The notes below the pieces were generated by a model. The model was not told the origin of the DNA and searched no databases. It saw only the letters and a program-made list of their open reading frames with translations. Below, one piece after another: positions 5,545 to 36,776 of a stretch of 64,000 nt of DNA (its first letter is position 1; each line of letters starts with the position of its first letter). A program made the translations under genes and the position numbers. The DNA comes from Escherichia phage vB_VIPECOMC06. The stretch lies in the sequence record PQ416618.1, one strand, 5' to 3'.

Positions 5545-6993
5545 TTAAGCTGTAGGAAGTTCAACCCATGCACCGTCTTTGCGAACATAGAATTTACCGT
5601 CTGAAGGAGCATCTTCAATATATCCAGCTTCCTTAAGAGTTTGGATTTCAGCTTCTGCAGCGGCCAAATCAGTTTCAAGAGTAGCAATTCTAGAAGTTAA
5701 ACCATTAATTGTCGTATCGTGACTTTTAACTGTAGGCAATATACCACGTTCTTCAACAGTCGAACCATTTGGGTTGGTGCCGTTTATAAGAGTATTTAAT
5801 GTGTTTACAGAACCCTTAATCCCTGTGGTATTAGTCCCAACATCAGTTTGAATGTTCTGAATGTCATTACTCATCTCACCGATAGATCCTTCAAGCGCTC
5901 GAGTACGATAAAGCAAAGAGCCGGCTGGTTCCGGTTTCCCACCTGAAGCGTCAACACCAACTACGTTATTTAACCATGACACATTAAAACGCAATCCTGA
6001 CGAAGAATCAGAGCCGACAACAGTGTTCAATGCTCCGATAGCATCAGTATTGAGTTTAATACGTCCTTGGATTGTAGTAGGCAAATCATCGGTGCCGATG
6101 GCAGTTTCTACTGTAGTCAAACGAGGTTTAATACCACCTGATTGATTGAGCTCAAGATTAATGTCGTTTATTGCTGAACTATTCGCATTAGTTGTAGTAA
6201 TAATAGAAGTCGTATTAGGATACCCAATAGACTGTTTAATGCCATCTAAGTCAGCATTTTGACGCGACAAAGTTAAATCAATACCGGAAAGACGACTAAA
6301 TACTGGAGTAGTGAAAGAAGTGCGAGGTCCCATTTCTTCGCGTAAGTGTTCGACTTCATTAGTTAAAGAGCCGACGTCAGAATCAGCAAATTTAGTTTCT
6401 AAATCAGTTAATCGAACACCGTGGTCAACAATCACAGAGCTATTAGTCATAATACGGCGTTTCATACCAGTGCTATCATTTCCTGGAGTAGGAACCCCAT
6501 TAATATCTTGACCGGTATATTGTCCTAATTCATTTTTAATCCAAAGCAGGTCGTTACGAACAGTTCTATAAACTGAATCTGTTTCCTGATTATAAACACC
6601 GATATCATCAGTATTCGCATCAATATGTTCATTCAAATCATTCAATTCACTAGCATGGGTTTGAACTGTGACTTTAATGACATCGATATCTTGGGTGTTC
6701 TGACCAATCTGTGCAAGTGCTTCGACGTCCCCGGAAACATCTAAAATACCTTGAATAACTTTTATATCTTCATTGGCTGTATTCAAAGAAGATGCTATAG
6801 TTTTAATATTAGTATCTAACGCTTCTACGTTACGTTGAACTTCAACAATAGGACGGTTCATTACACCTTCAGAACCGTATTTTGTATCAGCACCGGTAAT
6901 TTCTTCGTCGTTTTTAATCCATTCAATACGACTCTGACCCGCATCTGGCGGGCCGTCAACATATGGTAAATCTACCAGAGTTATATCAGCCAT
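5545..6993 (-). CDS. wac: Fibritin (whisker protein) with C-terminal foldon
   Basis: 482 aa; N-terminus [28 protein letters not shown] and C-terminal foldon GYIEDAPSDGKFYVRKDGAWVELPTA match T4 Wac. Confidence 0.92.
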   Translation of the reverse strand: MADITLVDLPYVDGPPDAGQSRIEWIKNDEEITGADTKYGSEGVMNRPIVEVQRNVEALDTNIKTIASSLNTANEDIKVIQGILDVSGDVEALAQIGQNTQDIDVIKVTVQTHASELNDLNEHIDANTDDIGVYNQETDSVYRTVRNDLLWIKNELGQYTGQDINGVPTPGNDSTGMKRRIMTNSSVIVDHGVRLTDLETKFADSDVGSLTNEVEHLREEMGPRTSFTTPVFSRLSGIDLTLSRQNADLDGIKQSIGYPNTTSIITTTNANSSAINDINLELNQSGGIKPRLTTVETAIGTDDLPTTIQGRIKLNTDAIGALNTVVGSDSSSGLRFNVSWLNNVVGVDASGGKPEPAGSLLYRTRALEGSIGEMSNDIQNIQTDVGTNTTGIKGSVNTLNTLINGTNPNGSTVEERGILPTVKSHDTTINGLTSRIATLETDLAAAEAEIQTLKEAGYIEDAPSDGKFYVRKDGAWVELPTA

Positions 6994-8576
6994 TATTTTA
7001 CCTTAATAATATAGTTTAAAGAAATATTCCATGGACGAGTTTCATTTCCAATTAATTCTGGACGATTCATGGTATATTTAGAGTTACGCTGAGACGCTGG
7101 ATCAATTTCATATCCTTCGTTAGTAAAATATGAACGGTTATCCCAGTCAAGTCCTTTACGAGTACCAACAAAGTTTGAACGACGAGTATTACCAAATGCA
7201 CCGGAATCATCGTGTTCGCCAAAACCACCAGCATGTTTATGATATGACATCTGTTGTTTTTGCACTTCACCGACATATCCACCAGTACAACCAACTCCTA
7301 AACGAGGTTTACCAAATTGGTCATTACCATTAACATTAGGGTTAGTTAAATGTGTACCACGACCTGAGCCGCGAACAAATAATCCGCGCATATCAGGCAA
7401 GCCCGGGTTAGAAGAGCTACCACCATATCGTGTCCCAATTCTGGAAGCATATACCGGACATTCTGAAGCAGAAACGGTCCCACCGTGACAGAAGCGCCAG
7501 TCAGAACTCGGTAAACTATCTGCAGCCCACATTGTAATAGAGCCAACAGGAAGAATTCGGTCTAATTCATTTTGAGTCACAATACGATTGCCTTGAATAT
7601 AACCACCAGTCATATTGACATTACCAGTTATATTAGCTCCACCAGAACCAACCGTCAACGTATTATTAATGCGAAGCGTGCCGTTAATAGTTTGTCCACC
7701 TCGTTGGTGGATAACATCAGCATTCCAAGCAAGGGCAGAAGAACCATCACCACCTGATTGGCTACCCGCTTGTGTAGTTAAACGAACAACTCCACGTAAA
7801 GAAGTTGTAGCCCCACGCCCGTTTAATGTTGCGCCGGTCACTACAACTGAAGAGTTGTTACTATTTACTTCAGTCTGTGTCCCTAGTTTAACGACGCCTT
7901 TATTAGTTTCTGATGCTACTGAATTCATAAAGGTATAAGGTGAAATTGCATAGCCTTCACGCAGGGTGCCTTGTTGTGCTTGTGCAACTGTAGCTAAACG
8001 AACAACACCGGTAATAGATTCGGTGGCGTCACTATTATTTGGAGCAATTTGCGAAATAAGTTTAATTGCTAATTGCTGTGTTTTTAACGGGGTCATTGCC
8101 GTTGTATCGTCAGAACCAGCTAATGCCGCAGCAGAAGTTGAAATTTTAATTACACCATTTGTTGCTTCTGTTGACACTTTTGTCTGAAATACATTGTCTA
8201 TTTTTTGATTCAATTTAAGCGGAGTAATTGATGCATCGTCAATAGCTCCGGTTACTGCTTCATCTTCAGTAGCATAACGAGTTAAACCATATTGTGTTTC
8301 GGTTGCATTAGGATATTGTAGACGAGCATTCAGTGTTGCCGGAGTAACAGCTTTACTATTATCTAATCCATCAATAACTTCTTGTGGAGTAGCTATTTGA
8401 ATAATTCCTGGTGTAGTAGTTGTTGCTTCCGGTACGCCATTAACACCTGAAGGAGAAATAGCAGCTAATGCGGCTTGGACATTAGTGACTGTATCTGGAA
8501 AATTCGACCCCGTAGGGTCGAATTCAACGTAAACGGATTCGTTTGAAACGTGTTGGTATGTATTGTTATTACTCAT
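6993..8576 (-). CDS. 12: Short tail fibre protein gp12
   Basis: 527 aa, identical length to T4 gp12; C-terminal receptor-binding region; synteny 11-12-wac. Confidence 0.9.
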
Positions 8577-29266: not shown

Positions 29267-29431
29267 ATGACTACTTTAATTATTTGGTTCGATGAAAATG
29301 AAGAAACATACTGTGTGAATATTGGTGAAAGTCCAATGCCTGAATTTGAATCCTCAGATAAAAACTCTGTTGTATCTTGGGCTGAAGGTTATAAAGCAGC
29401 TAAAGGTGACGTTGAAATAATTTACATCTAA
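29267..29431 (+). CDS. Hypothetical small protein
   Basis: 54 aa from MTTLIIWF with GAGGAG SD; ORF-track extension upstream lacks an SD. Confidence 0.35.
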   Translation: MTTLIIWFDENEETYCVNIGESPMPEFESSDKNSVVSWAEGYKAAKGDVEIIYI

Positions 29432-29478
29432 GTAAGTTTATGTTATAGTAATCACATCAAATCAAGAGGAGAAACAAA

Positions 29479-29776: not shown

Positions 29777-30370
29777 ATGAACACACTGAAGAAACTTGTT
29801 GAATTCATCCGCACTAAACTGGGTACTGCTATGGCTAAAAATCTGACTGTCGAAGAACAGTATAACGCAGCTGCAGATAAGTTGATTACCCAAATCAAAG
29901 AACTAAAAACGGCTTCTGTTAAATCTATTAATGAAGAAAAACGTATTCGTGAACTTGTTATTGAAAAGAATAAGCAAGCCGCTTCTAAGGAACGTGAAAT
30001 TCGTAAGCTCTTGGCTGAAGGACAAGATGTTACCATGCATGCTAAGCTTGGTCTTCTGTATCGTCGAACTGCCGAACAACTTAATACAAAAGCCGACGGG
30101 TACGCTGCTATGCGAATTGAAATTGCTCGTAAGGTGGTTGAACTTGATGATGCTCGTCAGAACCTGGCAATCAAACTCGAATACATTCGTGAAACTCGAG
30201 CAGCCAATGCCCTTGGTATCTCTACGGCTGATGATGTAATTGAAATCGCTGCACTGACTAAGGTTGATATCGAAGACACTCTGACTCGTGTTGAAACGTT
30301 CAATGGCACTCCAACTGGTGTCGAAACAACTTCTGCTGATGTACAAGAATATATTAACTCTTTGAAATAA
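29777..30370 (+). CDS. Coiled-coil protein, possibly PspA/IM30-like
   Basis: 197 aa, long heptad-like helical sequence (…[28 protein letters not shown]…[20 protein letters not shown]); resemblance to PspA architecture is by eye only. Confidence 0.4.
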
Positions 30371-30378
30371 AATAATAC

Positions 30379-30400
30379 GGAGGACTCCGGTCCTCCTTTT
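30379..30400 (+). terminator. Rho-independent terminator
   Basis: ggaggac-tccg-gtcctcc hairpin followed by TTTT. Confidence 0.65.
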
Positions 30401-30419: not shown

Positions 30420-31016
30420 ATGCGAAACCAAAATAATGATATTGACTCAATGTTCGAAGAGTTCCGAAATAAGGTAAATCCACCTACGTCTTTAGTTGAT
30501 TCATTACGATATGTTGCAACTGGACGTAAATGGTACTGGTCGTCTTCTTATGAGACAACTGAATATGCAAATAACCGAAAATCTTTATTAGCCCCAGGTA
30601 TTATGATTCATGATATCGGAGCTATTGCTAAACTAGTTGCAGACCATGATATTAGATTCACTGATTTCGTTGCTCCTACGTGGTCTGTTTGTTGTTTAAA
30701 CACTGAATGGGACTATATCAGTGAACGCTCTGAAGATTATTATGGTTTTAGAGATAAGCTCTTAAGGTCTAACATGTTTTATATCGATACTGAAGTTCTA
30801 GTCGATAATAAAAAATATTACTTTACGTTAATCGTCGATTCTGAAACTATGTATGAAGGCAAGCCTTTGCTTAAAAGAGTTGATGCTTTAAGTGCTATTG
30901 ATGCGCTTTATGAAACCATGGTTGTTAGTCCTAATTTCACTAACAATTTAATCCTTGAGCAATTTATTATGGAATGTAGAGAATATGTCAAAGCCAACCC
31001 TGTACATGCCAAGTAA
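30420..31016 (+). CDS. Hypothetical protein ending in the FIMECR junction motif
   Basis: 198 aa from MRNQNNDID with AAAGGAG SD; C-terminus ...EQFIMECREYVKANPVHAK. Confidence 0.45.
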   Translation: MRNQNNDIDSMFEEFRNKVNPPTSLVDSLRYVATGRKWYWSSSYETTEYANNRKSLLAPGIMIHDIGAIAKLVADHDIRFTDFVAPTWSVCCLNTEWDYISERSEDYYGFRDKLLRSNMFYIDTEVLVDNKKYYFTLIVDSETMYEGKPLLKRVDALSAIDALYETMVVSPNFTNNLILEQFIMECREYVKANPVHAK

Positions 31017-31380
31017 GCCCTGGGCGTATGAATACAAACGTAAATTAATCCCAAATGAAGTACTATTTGGCCCTATTTTAGCTTTAGCATTTTTAATCTT
31101 TATGATTATAGGAGCTATTTTAGATTCCAATAAAGTTATATCATCTGATGCAGTGTTTTTACTTATTATAGCCGGGTCGTTTATTGTACCATTTTTATTA
31201 ATGCCTATTAACTGGGTGGGATATTGGTACCAAGGACGTCATCACAGAGCCCGATTAAGAGAATGGAAAGTTCAGTGCGCAAAAGCCCAAGCTCAGTATG
31301 ATGAAGCTGTTAAAAAGTATGAATATGAAGAAGCTATGGAATTCGTTAAGGAAATAAGATGCAAAAGCCTCAACTCTTAA
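30985..31380 (+). CDS. Small membrane protein (FVKEIRC-tail family)
   Basis: 131 aa from MSKPTLYMP; two hydrophobic segments; C-terminus ...MEFVKEIRCKSLNS. Confidence 0.5.
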   Translation: MSKPTLYMPSKPWAYEYKRKLIPNEVLFGPILALAFLIFMIIGAILDSNKVISSDAVFLLIIAGSFIVPFLLMPINWVGYWYQGRHHRARLREWKVQCAKAQAQYDEAVKKYEYEEAMEFVKEIRCKSLNS

Positions 31381-31718
31381 CCGTATGGCCTTCTCTTGGC
31401 GAGAACATTCTAATTTTTATTATGAGTATTGGCATGGGATTTGCCTTTGGATTAGTTGGATTTCTTATTGACGGCGTTGTGTTAGGATTTATAGGGAACA
31501 CTGGTGGATTCACAGACCAATGGCAGGACTTACGGTATACCCAAGCCTTTGCATCCATCGCATCCTTTTGTACTGTAGTCTATTTTTACTACGATTTTAT
31601 AAACCATAACAAGAAAAATAAAAAGGTTTACGCTTCTCAAATGATTAGTTATAATGAACTCCTAGCTAGACGTGAAAATGAAACAATAGAAAACTTTATT
31701 AAGGAATGTAGAAAATGA
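31359..31718 (+). CDS. Small membrane protein (FIKECR-tail family)
   Basis: 119 aa; hydrophobic segments; C-terminus ...ENFIKECRK; AAGGAA SD. Confidence 0.5.
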   Translation: MQKPQLLTVWPSLGENILIFIMSIGMGFAFGLVGFLIDGVVLGFIGNTGGFTDQWQDLRYTQAFASIASFCTVVYFYYDFINHNKKNKKVYASQMISYNELLARRENETIENFIKECRK

Positions 31719-32020
31719 GTAAGATTATTGAAATTAAAGTACCAGAGTTTAATGATGCCAAATCCGCTTCAGATGCAATTTATAAACTTCTGAATCAAGC
31801 TGAACGTATCGAAGAAGAAGCAACAAAGATCGCAGACCAATATGCTGTATCATTTTCTGTAGGTGATTACGGTAGCGGTCGTACTTATTATCCTAAGGGT
31901 GAAATTGTATCCCAGTGGATGAAAGATGAAATTGAAAATAATGGTGGTGATGTTAAACGTGAAGGTAATGGTTACGTTATTACTGAAGGTGCTTGGGTTT
32001 CGTCTTCTGCGATGTGCTAA
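31715..32020 (+). CDS. Hypothetical protein, member of a tandem paralog triplet (C-terminal W-V-S-S-S..C)
   Basis: 101 aa; C-terminus EGAWVSSSAMC; the next two ORFs share this tail. Confidence 0.5.
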   Translation: MSKIIEIKVPEFNDAKSASDAIYKLLNQAERIEEEATKIADQYAVSFSVGDYGSGRTYYPKGEIVSQWMKDEIENNGGDVKREGNGYVITEGAWVSSSAMC

Positions 32021-32029
32021 GGAATCATT

Positions 32030-32302
32030 ATGTCTAAAGAACAAACCGAACTGGCCGAAGCCGTAGAAAAAATCTATGCAGCTATTGAGGCTGCCAAAGA
32101 AATTGCTGATAAACAAAACACAACATTCGACTTGTATCCAGCTTATGGTATGGGTGGAACCTATCATTCACCTGGACAACTTAAAGCCGATCTTGAACGT
32201 TGTACAAAAAACGGCTATGCTGAATGGGCTGACGTTTACCAATACGACTACAACCTGAGCCTCGAAACCGGTGGTTGGATTGCATCTTCTCACACTTGCT
32301 AA
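32030..32302 (+). CDS. Hypothetical protein, paralog triplet member
   Basis: 90 aa; C-terminus GGWIASSHTC. Confidence 0.5.
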   Translation: MSKEQTELAEAVEKIYAAIEAAKEIADKQNTTFDLYPAYGMGGTYHSPGQLKADLERCTKNGYAEWADVYQYDYNLSLETGGWIASSHTC

Positions 32303-32311
32303 GGAAATCAT

Positions 32312-32509
32312 ATGTCTCGTGAATTAGATTGTGCTGTACGTACGGCAGTAGCTGCTCTGGAAAACCTGTTCCAAATTGCAACAGAAGAACGCGAAGAAGT
32401 TACATTATGGATTGAAGATAACGCAGGTCTGAATCTCCAGAATGCAATCTCGGTATCAAATAATAGTATTACTGTTCAAGGCTGGGTATCATCTAGTTAT
32501 TCTTGCTAA
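32312..32509 (+). CDS. Hypothetical protein, paralog triplet member
   Basis: 65 aa; C-terminus QGWVSSSYSC. Confidence 0.5.
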   Translation: MSRELDCAVRTAVAALENLFQIATEEREEVTLWIEDNAGLNLQNAISVSNNSITVQGWVSSSYSC

Positions 32510-32513
32510 AACA

Positions 32514-32543
32514 GTTTACAACAAGATAGGGCTATGTTATAGT
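32514..32543 (+). promoter_or_regulatory. Early promoter/stem-loop cassette
   Basis: gtttacaacaagatagggctatgttatagtagtcctatc (palindrome atagg.../...cctat over -10). Confidence 0.5.
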
Positions 32544-32571
32544 AGTCCTATCAAATTAAATGGAGTCCACA

Positions 32572-32811
32572 ATGATTTATTACGAAAGTATCGGAACCAA
32601 AGTGGTTGGTAAAACCATTACTCGTGAAAAGTTTGCAAAGATATTCGATATGCGTTATAAAAAATCTGAACACAAAGGCATCAGATTCGAAGATGCACAC
32701 TGTACAATTTGCCCTTATAATGAAGACATAAATGGTACAATCGTTCCATTGGTAGAGGCTTCACATGACGACCTCTGGGATGAATATAATATCGCATGTC
32801 GCGAAATTTAA
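32572..32811 (+). CDS. Hypothetical Cys/His-containing small protein
   Basis: 79 aa from MIYYES with GGAG SD. Confidence 0.4.
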   Translation: MIYYESIGTKVVGKTITREKFAKIFDMRYKKSEHKGIRFEDAHCTICPYNEDINGTIVPLVEASHDDLWDEYNIACREI

Positions 32812-32839
32812 GTTAATGAATTAATCCGAGGAAATTATT

Positions 32840-33796
32840 ATGATGTTAGTTATTGGTTCTCGTGCACTTCACTATCATGGACTTATTGATTCTAACGCTA
32901 TCAAAAATAGTGACTGGGACTTTATTGCGGACCAAGGTTCTTGGAATACATTCAAAAATCAAATGATGGGTGTATATGTTCACCAAGATAACCCTGATGT
33001 CCAAGTTTTCAAATGCTTCCATAACGGACGCGAAACTCATTTTGAAGCATATATTGTTCCGGCAATCACTAATGTCCGTGAATTAGTCGGTGAACTCACT
33101 CCTGAAGATTTCACGTCTTCTTACGACCTTTTAAAATACGCCAAGAAAAATTTAACTAAAGACCGTTTGAACGGGTTTTACTGGGCAACTCCTGGGATGT
33201 GTCTTGCAATTAAGATGTCTCATCGTTTCAAGAAAAATAATCCATTCTTTTTAAAGACTATGAACCATATTCAGTATCTTCGTGGTAAAGGTGTTACACT
33301 GAACGATGAACTTACTGAAATTATGCTGAAACGCCAGAAAGAAACCTTGAACTATGCTCACCCAGTTCTTGACACTTCTAAAAGTGCGTTCTTTAAAGAT
33401 GACATCTATACATATGACCATGATACTATTCATGAAGCCATTGCACTAACAGACCGTCCAGCATATACATTTTATATGAAAGACGGTTCTGAAGTCATGA
33501 CCTCACGCGAGAAGTTTGAATCATTACCAGAAATGGTCAAATTGGCCGGTGTATACGAAGAATCATGTGTACTAGCATTAGAACGTTCTCAGATTCCTAA
33601 TGACTTTAAAATTAACCCTGAATCCAGTTTCATGATGGCATTGGAAAAAGTCTGTACAAGCATCACCTCCGGTTGGTTCCGTGAGTATGCCTGGGAAAAC
33701 TACAGCAAAGTAGTAAGTATGTACCAAAGCTTAGGACATGATGATTACGTCAAACGTTTCAAACAAAATTTCCATATGGTAAAACCTTTCAAATAA
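32840..33796 (+). CDS. Hypothetical 318-aa protein, possibly nucleotidyltransferase-fold
   Basis: N-terminus LVIGSRALHYHGLIDSNAIKNSDWDFI loosely fits a pol-beta NTase G-S...D-x-D signature, but the spacing is atypical; GAGGA SD. Confidence 0.35.
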   Translation: MMLVIGSRALHYHGLIDSNAIKNSDWDFIADQGSWNTFKNQMMGVYVHQDNPDVQVFKCFHNGRETHFEAYIVPAITNVRELVGELTPEDFTSSYDLLKYAKKNLTKDRLNGFYWATPGMCLAIKMSHRFKKNNPFFLKTMNHIQYLRGKGVTLNDELTEIMLKRQKETLNYAHPVLDTSKSAFFKDDIYTYDHDTIHEAIALTDRPAYTFYMKDGSEVMTSREKFESLPEMVKLAGVYEESCVLALERSQIPNDFKINPESSFMMALEKVCTSITSGWFREYAWENYSKVVSMYQSLGHDDYVKRFKQNFHMVKPFK

Positions 33797-33808
33797 CTTC
33801 ACAAAACT

Positions 33809-33838
33809 GTTTACAACATGATAGGACTATGTTATAGT
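33809..33838 (+). promoter_or_regulatory. Early promoter/stem-loop cassette
   Basis: gtttacaacatgataggactatgttatagtagtcctat. Confidence 0.5.
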
Positions 33839-33866
33839 AGTCCTATTAAAACATGAGGAGAATATT

Positions 33867-34172
33867 ATGAAATTAGGCGAAACCAACCGAATTGGTCTTT
33901 TAACAATATTTGCATCACCTTTTTACGCAGCCCTTTCTGTTGCAGTATTACAAAAGGCTTACGATATGGATGGTGTTCCTGGTTTTGTATTCTTATCGCC
34001 GTTTTTGCTATTCGTTGGAGCATTGTTATTATATGCCACGACTAGTTTCGACCATAACGTCTGGGTCAATTATAAATGTAAATTGTCTGAAGAAGAACAC
34101 GCGGAAGCTCGTAAAAAAGCTATTGAATCTACTAATCTAGAAAATTTCATTAAAGAATGTCGAGGAAAATAA
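33867..34172 (+). CDS. Small membrane protein (FIKECR-tail family)
   Basis: 101 aa; two hydrophobic segments; C-terminus ...LENFIKECRGK. Confidence 0.5.
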   Translation: MKLGETNRIGLLTIFASPFYAALSVAVLQKAYDMDGVPGFVFLSPFLLFVGALLLYATTSFDHNVWVNYKCKLSEEEHAEARKKAIESTNLENFIKECRGK

Positions 34173-34243
34173 TATGAATAGTTGATGGCAATGAAGGTAT
34201 TTCATACTATTCAGTAGATTGGACATCCTGTCCATCCTACTTA

Positions 34244-34642
34244 GTGAAACATATTTGCCAAGAATTTAAAATCGACCAGCCAGCAGGTATTATCGTGAAC
34301 AGATACATTAATGGATATCAACCTATCGATGAAGTAATACGAACAACCCAAGCTGAGCTTGAAAAGTTTTTCAATAAGTGCCAATGGATAACAGGATGGA
34401 TTATATTTGTACCATCGGTATGGTTTTTTAGTACTAAAGTAAGTGCCTTTGCCGTACTAGATATTATCGCCATCTTATTAGCATCTATTATCATAAGTGT
34501 TGTTGGTGGCATCATTGGCGGCGGTACCGCCGCCATCATTATTAATCTTATTAAAAGTAGTTTACAAGAACGTAAAGACAAGATAAAAGCCAAGAATAAT
34601 GAAGTTGAACGTTTTATTACCGAATGCAGGAATTTGAGATGA
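34244..34642 (+). CDS. Small membrane protein (FITECR-tail family), non-ATG (GTG) start
   Basis: 132 aa; no in-frame ATG in the N-terminal two-thirds and no clear SD; hydrophobic core with GG-rich segment; C-terminus ...ERFITECRNLR. Confidence 0.35.
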   Translation: MKHICQEFKIDQPAGIIVNRYINGYQPIDEVIRTTQAELEKFFNKCQWITGWIIFVPSVWFFSTKVSAFAVLDIIAILLASIIISVVGGIIGGGTAAIIINLIKSSLQERKDKIKAKNNEVERFITECRNLR

Positions 34643-35097
34643 TGAGTAAGAAAAATAAAGTGAAAGAACTATCAGCCGGTATTATTTTCCTTACCGAAGA
34701 TAAAGAATTATTCATGGGGCGTGTAACTGGTTCTCGTCCTAAAGGTTCTTTAGCTCATCGGTGGGATATTCCTAAAGGTCGTGTCGAGCCCGGCGAATCT
34801 CCTATTGAAGCCGCTATTCGTGAATGTGAAGAAGAAACTGGGTTTACACAATATGACCCTGCCTTCCTGAAAGACCTAGGTGAACATCGTTACTCAGACA
34901 ATAAGAATATTCATCTGTTCCTATATACCATCCCTGTAGAGCACGAGCAATTCAGAAACAGTGTTTGTAATTCCTATCATACGTTCCCAGACGGACGACA
35001 GATTCCTGAATTTGATGCATTCGCTTTAATTAAACCTTCTCAATGGGAATATGTAATGGGCAAATCATTATATAAGGTGCTCACTACCCTCCTATAA
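34639..35097 (+). CDS. nudE: Nudix hydrolase NudE (T4 e.1)
   Basis: Nudix box GRVEPGESPIEAAIRECEEETG; about 152 aa; adjacent to lysozyme gene e. Confidence 0.88.
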   Translation: MMSKKNKVKELSAGIIFLTEDKELFMGRVTGSRPKGSLAHRWDIPKGRVEPGESPIEAAIRECEEETGFTQYDPAFLKDLGEHRYSDNKNIHLFLYTIPVEHEQFRNSVCNSYHTFPDGRQIPEFDAFALIKPSQWEYVMGKSLYKVLTTLL

Positions 35098-35131: not shown

Positions 35132-35620
35132 ATGAATATATTTGAAATGCTTCGTAATGACGAAGGTCTTAGACTGACTTTATACAAAGACACTGAAGGC
35201 TTTTGGACGATTGGCATAGGTCATTTAGTAACAAAGAACCCGTCTTTAGCTGTAGCTAAAGCCGAACTTGACAGAATGATCGGGCGTAAATGCAACGGTA
35301 CAATTACCCTTGATGAGGCTGAAAAGTTATTTAATGAAGACGTTGATAAAGCTGTTCGCGGAATCTTGGGTAATGCTAAACTTAAACCGGTGTATGATTC
35401 TTTAGATGCAGTTCGTCGATGTGCATTGGTCAATATGGTCTTCCAAATGGGTGTAGCAGGCGTCGCCGGTTTTACTAATTCTCTTCGTATGCTTCAACAG
35501 AAACGTTGGGACGAAGCGGCAGTAAATCTAGCCCAATCTAAATGGTATCGTCAGACACCTAATCGCGCGAAACGCGTAATCTCAACATTTAAAACAGGAA
35601 CTTGGAAAGCGTATATATGA
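35132..35620 (+). CDS. e: Endolysin (T4 lysozyme)
   Basis: 162 aa; [32 protein letters not shown]...[13 protein letters not shown]...[15 protein letters not shown] matches T4 lysozyme, including the catalytic Glu11/Asp20/Thr26 region. Confidence 0.95.
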
Positions 35621-35898
35621 AAACATATAGTGAATTTTTATCAGAATCTATTCTTAACGAAGCTACTGACACATTTGCAACTAAGCTAGGTGCAGCTTTG
35701 GTTGAAGCTGAAAGTTTATTAGCACGTATTTCTGAACTTGCTAGTAAGATAGATACTCGCAAATTTGAGCGCACCAGTGATATCGTTAAGCTTGAAGCCT
35801 TGTTGCGTATGTGCGATAAACCAGAAGAAATCGCTAAGAACGGCTCGCTGATGAAACAACGTCTTGAAAAATATATTTCAGGCGCTTCAGAAAAATAG
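35617..35898 (+). CDS. Internal-protein-like protein with capsid targeting sequence
   Basis: Starts [10 protein letters not shown] (CTS-like); ATGA overlap with the gene e stop; 93 aa. Confidence 0.6.
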
Positions 35899-36370: not shown

Positions 36371-36401
36371 GGAAAAAGGTTGCGATGGTAAAGCTTAAAT
36401 T

Positions 36402-36431
36402 GTTTACGCTTAAGTATTAATATGGTATAAT
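36402..36431 (+). promoter_or_regulatory. Early promoter (GTTTAC -35, TATAAT -10)
   Basis: gtttacgcttaagtattaatatggTATAAT upstream of the 36462 ORF. Confidence 0.5.
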
Positions 36432-36461
36432 TACTCTATCAAAACAAACAAGGAAACAAAA

Positions 36462-36776
36462 ATGAAAACGTATAAAGAATTTATTGCAGAATCCGCCAAC
36501 CAACGCGTTGAAGGTGGTTATATTTGGATTGAACAAGTTGAGCCACCGAGCCGCACTTCTACAGGTAAATGGAAAATTACTGTTGATGGTCCTGGTGGTA
36601 AACGTAGGACTCTTAAAGAAATTAATGGGTACTATGAAGAAGCTCTTTCGGATGCAGGAACTTACATGATGCAAATCATGATTAAAAACCCTGAAAACCG
36701 TTTTGCAGCTAAAGTCTTCCGTCGCATCGGTAATAAACTTTATGACGCATACTCTAAAAACTTCCCTAAAGAATAA
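36462..36776 (+). CDS. Internal protein (IPII-like) with capsid targeting sequence
   Basis: Starts MKTYKEFIAESA; 104 aa; near denV/e as are T4 ipII/ipIII. Confidence 0.75.
   Translation: MKTYKEFIAESANQRVEGGYIWIEQVEPPSRTSTGKWKITVDGPGGKRRTLKEINGYYEEALSDAGTYMMQIMIKNPENRFAAKVFRRIGNKLYDAYSKNFPKE

Follow-up and report, generated by a model that had tools for sequence, protein, structure and literature searches.

A conserved peptide at gene junctions of an RB69-like phage is probably a C-terminal tail shared by e.5 and small inner-membrane proteins

Internal proteins of phage T4 carry an N-terminal capsid targeting sequence (CTS), MKTYxEFIxE, which directs their packaging into the head and is cleaved by the prohead protease. 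Conserved sequences of a second kind, the PeSL cassettes, are found at gene boundaries in the hyperplastic regions of T4-type phages; they are non-coding, join an early promoter to a stem-loop, are conserved as DNA and have been linked to gene insertion, deletion and replacement (PMC2839356, PMC4122927). T4 also recombines at microhomologies of 6-10 bp (Srikant et al. 2022, PMC9391042). The subject of this work is a motif, F[IV]x[ED]CR in its strict form, near the ends of five open reading frames (ORFs) in a 64,000-nucleotide stretch of Escherichia phage vB_VIPECOMC06 (record PQ416618.1), which is referred to as the window and comes from an RB69-like Mosigvirus, a T4-type phage. The five ORFs, neighbouring and co-transcribed early genes, are e.5, e.4, e.3, an RB69ORF133c-like gene (ORF133c-like hereafter) and e.2. 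A preliminary description of this DNA saw in the motif a conserved linker for recombination or translational coupling, at which modules of membrane-protein genes are swapped in frame. Our analysis indicates instead that it is probably a C-terminal tail acting at the protein level, borne by e.5 together with small inner-membrane proteins that vary from phage to phage, and that it would serve all of them as a docking or assembly helix. The genes were already known and are annotated as hypothetical; the new part is the tail that they share, of which no description was found in the literature, where the names e.2 to e.5 are poorly searchable and an earlier mention is possible.

The tail resembles the CTS in being a short conserved terminal peptide on unrelated proteins of the T-even hyperplastic regions, with a presumed role at the protein level and with a coding sequence that offers homology for shuffling. 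It differs from the CTS, however, in being C-terminal and in its presence mostly on membrane proteins, which cannot be packaged. Moreover, the CTS is followed by a conserved (L/I)-x-E cleavage site; distant variants of the tail have Y, H, G, Q, N or S in place of the Glu at position 4, nor do they conserve the I-x-E portion with its likeness to a gp21 cleavage site (FIKYCR, WIKGCR). With the PeSLs the tail has in common that short conserved sequences stand at gene boundaries and are linked to the insertion, deletion and replacement of genes, but the tail is coding, is conserved as a peptide and is unstructured as RNA. Hence, the nearest known kinds differ from the tail in position and in peptide-level conservation.

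All five ORFs and their tails were found where the preliminary description had placed them. Its statement that the same motif closes the five ORFs is correct in the strict sense for four of them, while e.4 ends in F-V-K-E-I-R, without the Cys of the motif. The Cys that follows the Arg in e.4 is encoded in the codons that overlap the start of e.3 (ATGCAAAAG in the e.4 frame), so that e.4 has to be considered a Cys-less variant, and its orthologues likewise lack the Cys (FVKESR in T4 and FIKEVR in VR20). Six-frame translation of the 64 kb yields 4 strict matches, all of them in the tails of these ORFs and 1-11 codons before the stop, when 0.10 are expected from residue composition; in 100 nucleotide shuffles there were on average 0.1 strict matches and never more than 1. 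The Poisson probability of this excess is ~4e-6 even before the position of the matches (in long ORFs, near stops and within 4 kb) is counted, so the motif is far beyond chance, as the preliminary description had supposed. In the whole T4 genome, translated in six frames, there are 3 strict matches, and these are in the tails of e.5 (KFVKECREY), e.3 (EFVIDCRKIK) and e.2 (NFITECRKLK), the e.4 tail of T4 (KFVKESR) being again the Cys-less one.

The T4 record itself shows some peculiarities at this place (locus L002, 1991-2461, minus strand). The e.2 tail of T4 lies in an unannotated short ORF behind the annotated e.2 and just before nudE, the annotated e.2 (102 amino acids, aa) being apparently frameshifted; intact e.2 genes of 162 aa are found in other T4-like phages (loci L009 and L010). 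The ATG annotated as the start of T4 nudE (MQEIKM...) arises from the E-C codons of the e.2 tail, and a second ATG has a good Shine-Dalgarno (SD) sequence.

The presence of the motif in other phages was studied in 21 loci anchored on e.6, the gene upstream of e.5, which ~1100 Straboviridae genomes possess, and in four loci from distant genera, the counts being taken over 27 loci. Whether other T4-like genomes carry it, a question raised in the preliminary description, can be answered positively: it is present at homologous genes in T4, VR20 and Aeromonas phages, the motif-bearing phages being T4, RB69, Gaprivervirus VR20, Karamvirus and Aeromonas phages 65 and B614. In VR20 the tails read RFIAECREY, EFIKEVR, TFIKECK and SFIEECRK, on proteins that are only ~30% identical to those of the window. 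More remote phages have up to seven tail-ending ORFs per locus, with variants such as FIKHCR, FIKYCR, WIKGCRK, WVKGCRK, FIKNCRR, FIKSCRK, WIRSCRK and FIAKCRAK. An e.5-like tail-bearing gene follows e.6 in every tail-bearing locus examined, including those of Aeromonas phages 65 and B614, where the gene next after e.6 ends in DFIKECRY... and LFIDYCRR..., respectively. The divergent variants were collected by regular-expression scans in which the opposite strand, an equal amount of sequence, served as control. A generalized tail, [FW][IVLA]xxC[RK] within 16 residues of the stop of ORFs of at least 60 aa, occurs 88 times on the coding strand versus 5 times on the opposite strand. Iterating a hidden Markov model from strict tails did not reach the divergent variants. 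With a profile of the 44 C-terminal residues there were only 127 candidates and 2 matches among 5.8 billion proteins, the motif being too short for database-wide E-values, and a degenerate DNA pattern run against IMG/VR hit mostly unrelated contigs among the matches listed.

The tail is selected as amino acids and not as nucleotides. Among 93 distinct nucleotide versions the Cys is encoded by TGT (39) or TGC (34), the Arg by AGA (35), CGT (20), AGG (13), CGA (9), CGC (6) or CGG (1), and the aromatic position is Phe as TTT (71) or TTC (14) or Trp as TGG (8). The tails of e.3 and ORF133c-like, with six identical residues, show 3 synonymous differences, and those of e.3 and e.5 form a 22-nt repeat that is 91% identical (D17). 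The DNA-level signal for recombination or coupling advanced in the preliminary description, which had suggested an alignment of the five junctions, does not agree with codons that vary so freely nor with window copies that have only 10-17 of 18 nt in common. At the protein level the picture is different. Of all columns in an alignment of 8 diverse e.5 homologues (18-48% identity), M1, N94, F182, C186 and R187 alone are invariant, and the same picture, with F, C and R invariant, was obtained with 20 sequences. A full HMMER scan with the e.5 profile against 1.84 billion representative proteins retrieved only 29 clusters; the distant family members inspected end, without exception (23/23), in F[IV]xxC[R/K] followed by 2-19 more residues, and F, C and R are still invariant in relatives whose next start is up to 31 nt further on. 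The tail is thus ancient and invariant in the e.5 family, and in the alignments of e.2-, e.3-, e.4- and ORF133c-like proteins, too, its columns rank with the best conserved.

The alternative that the junction is a portable crossover site of ~18 bp, in which the peptide is incidental, has to be confronted with what recombination has done at these places. In contig L008 and in phage vB_Eco_F26 the e.2 gene has been lost and e.3 is directly followed by nudE. Their junction is identical to T4 e.3 tail sequence through GATTGCAGGAAA and from there on to the T4 e.2 tail and the nudE start, the crossover having occurred in the shared C-R-K codons, within 9-12 nt of identity (TGCAGGAAA), to give the hybrid tail FVIDCR+KLK. 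The e.4 gene is missing in loci L012-L015 and L018, from phages related to VR20, and three of these loci have a hybrid in which the e.5 tail runs into the final residues of the e.4 tail (FIAECREYAKEVQNGTA in L013 and L015, ending in ...GAA in L018); this crossover used the similar stretches of SD and start that come after the two motifs, and not the motif itself. Precise in-frame deletions in or beside tail codons, insertions and deletions of ORF130c and ORF132c that abut tails, and one tail on dissimilar bodies would all fit a crossover site, for which the microhomology recombination of T4 provides the means and the PeSLs a precedent of conserved sequences driving shuffling in hyperplastic regions. 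Yet one of the two documented deletions took place after the motif, an exchange of Phe for Trp needs two base changes, and F, C and R persist in e.5 relatives at 15-20% identity, farther than a recombination signal would last. With synonymous codons free as well, we regard a DNA-level linker as an unlikely reason for the conservation.

Furthermore, among the loci compared no replacement of one body by another at a nucleotide-identical linker was found, only deletions and hybrid tails, so the in-frame swapping of membrane-gene modules envisaged in the preliminary description finds no recent example. A case that might have been taken for such a swap, in phages phiC120 (L003, 3975-4090) and FL31 (L004), was discarded, since the matches to the last ~30 residues of e.3 result from an internal deletion and a frameshift; in both of these Mosigviruses e.3 is a pseudogene whose last ~30 codons, with the tail and the start of the next gene, are intact. 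What remains of the linker is that deletions of e.2 and e.4 do fall at or beside tail codons. Neighbouring genes that end in similar codons and have similar ribosome-binding sites supply the microhomology for a precise in-frame loss of the gene between them. The e.2 crossover within 9-12 nt of identity is comparable to the microhomology rearrangements of T4, with the difference that here the microhomology is repeated, in frame and supplied by a peptide motif that is presumably functional, and for this reason the deletion product keeps an intact tail and an intact next start. Recombination at the tail codons is a side effect and not the cause of their conservation.

A second alternative places the constraint on translation, the motif being the ribosome-binding site of the downstream gene (SD sequence plus A/U-rich enhancer) and the frame of the upstream gene having been fixed by common descent. 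Measured from the Arg codon, the next start is at -1 to +10 nt in the window and at up to +38 nt in other phages. The description of the motif as immediately preceding the next start is adequate for the window, where it stands at or near starts, except that the start after ORF133c-like opens a remnant of three codons only (ATG AAT AGT TGA). Of the tight junctions, with the next ATG within 2 nt of the Arg codon (n=20 distinct), 15 show a suitably spaced SD-like core, and all 15 cores overlap codons 3-4 of the motif (KE, KG, EE, RS). At the loose junctions (n=35) an SD is present in 30, but over codons 3-4 in only 2; F, I/V, C and R are retained there, but positions 3-4 are free to vary (KY, KH, KQ, KN, AE, ID, DQ and others). 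The claim that the motif contains the downstream SD (AAGGA, AGGA or GAGGA) is accordingly right for most tight junctions and wrong for nearly all loose ones, and dual coding of peptide and SD is confined to the two codons where packing is tightest.

Other features of the junctions can be read in favour of a translation signal. AGA and AGG make up 48 of 84 Arg codons, an over-representation that purine-rich ribosome-binding-site pressure predicts; ATGA stop/start overlaps exist between e.3 and the next gene (ORF139c-like) and between e.2 and nudE, and e.5/e.4 and e.4/e.3 overlap by 32 and 22 nt. However, the overlap is not specific to the motif, since RB69 neighbours that lack the motif also overlap stop and start as a rule; as the genes abut or overlap, a tail at the C-terminus comes to lie at a gene junction. 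In addition, CGT, CGC, CGA and CGG are common as Arg codons, the tail of e.5 relatives may lie up to 19 codons before the stop, and a translation signal would not account for the frame preference of the coding strand. No RNA structure beyond shuffled controls was detected at the five window junctions (minimum free energy z -0.6 to +1.2), where the SD is either unpaired or inside the footprint of a ribosome on the motif. A signal for initiation or coupling is, on this balance, quite unlikely to be what conserves the motif.

Conservation of a peptide with variable codons, next to the start of the following gene, would also be expected from a nascent peptide of the SecM, MifM or VemP type, which arrests the ribosome, perhaps senses the insertion of a transmembrane (TM) segment and tunes initiation of the next gene. 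The last TM segment of the two-TM carriers is 31-44 residues upstream of the tail, and pulling forces act on arrest peptides such as SecM and MifM at about such a spacing; variants such as TWIRSCRK resemble the WIRK stretch of MifM, a likeness of value as a lead only. Against this stands that the universal carrier, e.5, is soluble, that the downstream SD and AUG would be hidden, not exposed, by a ribosome stalled at the motif, and that the junctions offer no SD-sequestering structure to be opened, as there is in SecM and MifM. Relatives of e.5 have up to 19 codons after the motif, with the next start 22-31 nt away, and we know of no operon with several arrest peptides. This is the most improbable of the explanations considered.

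The tail is found on proteins of different nature. Kyte-Doolittle analysis gives two hydrophobic segments for each of e.4, ORF133c-like and e.2, at least one for e.3 and none for e.5, in agreement with the earlier assignment of four carriers as small membrane proteins; among all carrier families one, e.5, is soluble, and most of the others examined are small two-TM proteins whose C-termini are predicted to be cytoplasmic. The N-termini and the stretch behind the last TM segment are rich in basic residues, and the tail comes at the end of a charged linker; the topology would be N-in/C-in, with a cytoplasmic tail. The position three residues upstream of the Phe is nearly always hydrophobic (alignment A2). 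Hydrophobic positions at -3, 0, +1 and +4 relative to the Phe form an i, i+3, i+4, i+7 stripe (hydrophobic, F, I/V, C), and the tail is predicted to be a short amphipathic helix with the consensus hydrophobic-x-x-F-[I/V]-[K/x]-x-C-R, after which come 0-19 residues, mostly basic. Generic membrane binding by such a helix is less likely, the conservation being too specific (invariant C-R) and the net charge of T4- and RB69-type tails about zero.

When the tails are trimmed, 111 tail-bearing ORFs fall into 22 BLAST clusters and represent at least 15 families; hhalign links e.5-like, e.4-like and e.2-like proteins each only among themselves; the best pair across the types e.5, e.4, e.3, e.2 and ORF133c is e.3/e.4, with 32% probability. 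By these comparisons the tail is on bodies without detectable mutual similarity, and this part of the module picture of the preliminary description is sustained. The databases reflect the same diversity, each of the five ORFs being placed in a separate PHROGs family (2607, 2604, 2330, 9798 and 2203) and e.5, e.4 and e.2 having their own families in a newer Pfam release (Phage_T4_Y06P, Phage_T4_Y06O and Phage_T4_Y06M, from precomputed matches and all without function), a separate filing that hides the shared tail. Descent of all carriers from one gene by tandem duplication, with the tail as a functionless remnant, would explain the tandem arrangement, the weak hhalign links between some families and the e.4-like paralogues, of which locus L024 has three in tandem with a common N-terminal YxPSKP. 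But one would not expect a functionless remnant to be the best conserved part of each family, and a 200-aa soluble alpha/beta protein and 100-aa two-TM proteins are unlikely homologues, for which hhalign gives no support. Plain paralogy is thus very unlikely.

The shared tail would then be explained best as a common cytoplasmic docking or assembly helix, through which e.5 and the membrane proteins would meet a single partner, or one another, at the inner side of the membrane. As e.5 is the only universal carrier, the simplest history would be that the tail was ancestral in e.5 and spread from there to the neighbour genes by local recombination. The tail ends also offer the microhomology for precise in-frame gene loss in which a tail and the next start are kept.

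Several points weigh against this interpretation. In a Slopekvirus locus with an e.6-like gene of 35% identity, the ORF beside it lacks the tail. The e.4 start of T4 and RB69 comes directly after the e.5 motif though e.5 continues for 11 codons, a position that leaves some room for positional constraint at the RNA level and would suit a translation signal. The Cys is invariant in the e.5, e.3 and e.2 families, so that chemistry (metal or thiol) rather than helix packing could be at stake; the occurrence of I, V, M or S at this position in e.4-type proteins weighs in turn against chemistry. The membrane carriers may be of common descent, the tail being their sole surviving similarity. The cytoplasmic orientation derives from simple hydropathy and charge counts and not from a dedicated predictor. 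The AlphaFold2 model of e.5 from the 20-sequence alignment is poor, with a mean predicted local distance difference test score (pLDDT) of 60 and ~50 for the tail helix, and has no Foldseek match to known folds below E 0.07. No tool that was applied yielded a partner, a fold or a phenotype for the tail.

The invariable neighbour, e.6, is a candidate for the partner of the tail. Its single-sequence AlphaFold2 model is a long two-helix hairpin with pLDDT >90 over residues 30-130, for which the top Foldseek matches are Vipp1/PspA (ESCRT-III) proteins at E 5e-3 to 6e-2, generic coiled-coil hairpins being nearly as good. The gene order recalls the Psp system (the coiled-coil protein PspA with the small membrane proteins PspB and PspC), since a ~200-aa helical-hairpin protein, here e.6, comes before small bitopic or polytopic membrane proteins with cytoplasmic C-terminal helices. 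The likeness is an analogy only: e.6 was rejected as a PspA homologue, for it has no Pfam PspA_IM30 match, hhalign against E. coli PspA gives 0.2% probability and the fold matches are not significant. A bolder version, in which the tail, as a counterpart of the N-terminal CTS, is a portable C-terminal address tag that docks e.5 and up to six exchangeable small inner-membrane proteins on a common partner, most plausibly e.6, and the e.6-e.2 block is a Psp-like membrane module whose subunits are gained and lost at the tag, appears doubtful.

The genes e.2 to e.5 have been hypothetical since the T4 genome, and the shared tail makes one testable system of four to seven orphan genes. A single tail peptide could be used as bait, and point mutations of F, C and R would provide clean loss-of-function alleles. 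Moreover, a peptide motif at gene ends that is functional and doubles as in-frame microhomology helps to explain how genes turn over in hyperplastic regions without broken neighbours.

The features of the locus are collected in Table 1. The 4.4 kb round the motif is 96-97.5% identical to RB69-like Mosigvirus genomes, and the names of the five ORFs are those of RB69 (e.5, e.4, e.3, RB69ORF133c and e.2), with e.6 upstream and nudE, e (lysozyme) and denV downstream. In the nearest phage, phi25-307 (97.5% identical), the RefSeq gene calls are the same as here, including the GTG start of e.2. Membership in the T4 families was confirmed for e.5 (phrog_2607, E 3.9e-95 over residues 1-198; the 94%-identical P0003 has a precomputed PF26876 match), e.4 (phrog_2604, E 1.1e-61; the orthologue of phage NBG1 has PF26873) and e.3 (phrog_2330, E 4.5e-50; 35-40% identity over the full length to T4-type e.3 in tblastn). 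The match of e.2 to phrog_2203 (E 4.4e-36; the T4 e.2 family is also PF26896) begins at profile position 33, ~30 N-terminal codons of RB69 being missing. Comparison with RB69 shows that ORF132c (228 aa) and these first ~30 codons of e.2 have been deleted in the window (34172-34244 versus 6381-7160 of the RB69 locus L001). The truncated e.2 starts at a GTG with no obvious SD sequence and may be poorly expressed or decaying. RB69ORF130c, which lies between e.2 and nudE in RB69, is cleanly absent, so that e.2 abuts nudE in the window.

Table 1. Genes, tail motifs and deletion scar from e.6 to nudE, in window coordinates
Feature	Position	Strand	Remarks
e.6	29777..30370	+	conserved coiled-coil protein directly upstream of e.5; 88% identical to T4 e.6
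e.5	30420..31016	+	soluble, 198 aa; phrog_2607, Phage_T4_Y06P; tail ...EQFIMECREY...
e.5 tail motif FIMECR	30963..30980	+	e.4 ATG begins 4 nt past the Arg codon
e.4	30985..31380	+	two-TM protein; phrog_2604, Phage_T4_Y06O; tail ...EFVKEIRCKS...
e.4 tail motif FVKEIR (Cys-less variant)	31342..31359	+	codons 3-4 AAGGA = e.3 SD; e.3 ATG overlaps the Arg codon
e.3	31359..31718	+	small membrane protein; phrog_2330; tail ...ENFIKECRK, then stop
e.3 tail motif FIKECR	31695..31712	+	SD AAGGA in codons 3-4; ATGA stop/start overlap with the next gene (ORF139c-like)
RB69ORF133c-like gene	33867..34172	+	two-TM protein; phrog_9798, weak match to e.2 family phrog_2203; tail ...ENFIKECRGK, then stop
ORF133c-like tail motif FIKECR	34146..34163	+	TTC ATT AAA GAA TGT CGA
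Deletion scar	34176..34243	+	first 3 codons of RB69 ORF132c fused out of frame to e.2 interior
e.2	34244..34642	+	two-TM protein, N-terminally truncated versus RB69; phrog_2203, Phage_T4_Y06M; tail ...ERFITECRNLR, then stop
e.2 tail motif FITECR	34613..34630	+	SD AGGA = Arg codon + next base; ATGA overlap with nudE at 34639
nudE (Nudix hydrolase)	34639..35097	+	gene downstream of the last tail

No functional lead for the carriers, such as the superinfection exclusion or defence evasion suggested in the preliminary description, was obtained from Pfam, NCBIfam, PADLOC or PHROGs, and a sequence search of the PDB gave nothing above noise. In phage F26 (L146, 1127-1863) e.4 and e.3 have been deposited as 'sulfurtransferase', and a few more GenBank records use the label; it has no support in the profile libraries and seems to be an annotation error that has propagated.

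Directly after the e.6 stop (30379-30396) a GC-rich hairpin, GGAGGACTCCGGTCCTCC, precedes a TTTT run; being symmetric, it scores on both strands, and it separates e.6 from e.5 as a likely intrinsic terminator. Within e.2 (34516-34535) there is a perfect 8-bp GC-rich palindrome, TGGCGGCGGTACCGCCGCCA, which encodes the glycine-rich TM stretch GGGTAA and is flagged as terminator-like only because T-rich codons follow.

An early-promoter cassette of ~57 nt is present in four copies (29415-29471, 32509-32565, 33804-33860 and 36397-36453), each with GTTTAC...N17...TATAGT/TATAAT and then an SD. The second and third copies, which bracket the ORF135c/ORF134c-like genes, have an inverted repeat, ATAGG(G/A)CTAT...ATAGTAGTCCTAT, across the -10 region. 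These cassettes look like PeSLs. CTS-type ORFs are found downstream (35617-35898 and 36462-36776), both beginning with the CTS signature (MKTYKEFIAE in one), and the number and kind of such ORFs round e and denV differ among related loci.

The same block contains a second family with a conserved C-terminal peptide, in this case with a terminal Cys. It is formed by three tandem small ORFs (31715-32020, 32030-32302 and 32312-32509; phrog_899 and phrog_4882) that end in W-[VI]-[SA]-S-S-x-x-C and the stop, after which come TAAGGAA and then ATGTCT, where the next gene begins; these junctions form a 48-nt repeat (D3). In related phages there are up to five such paralogues, with the ends ...SSSxxC or ...PSSC.

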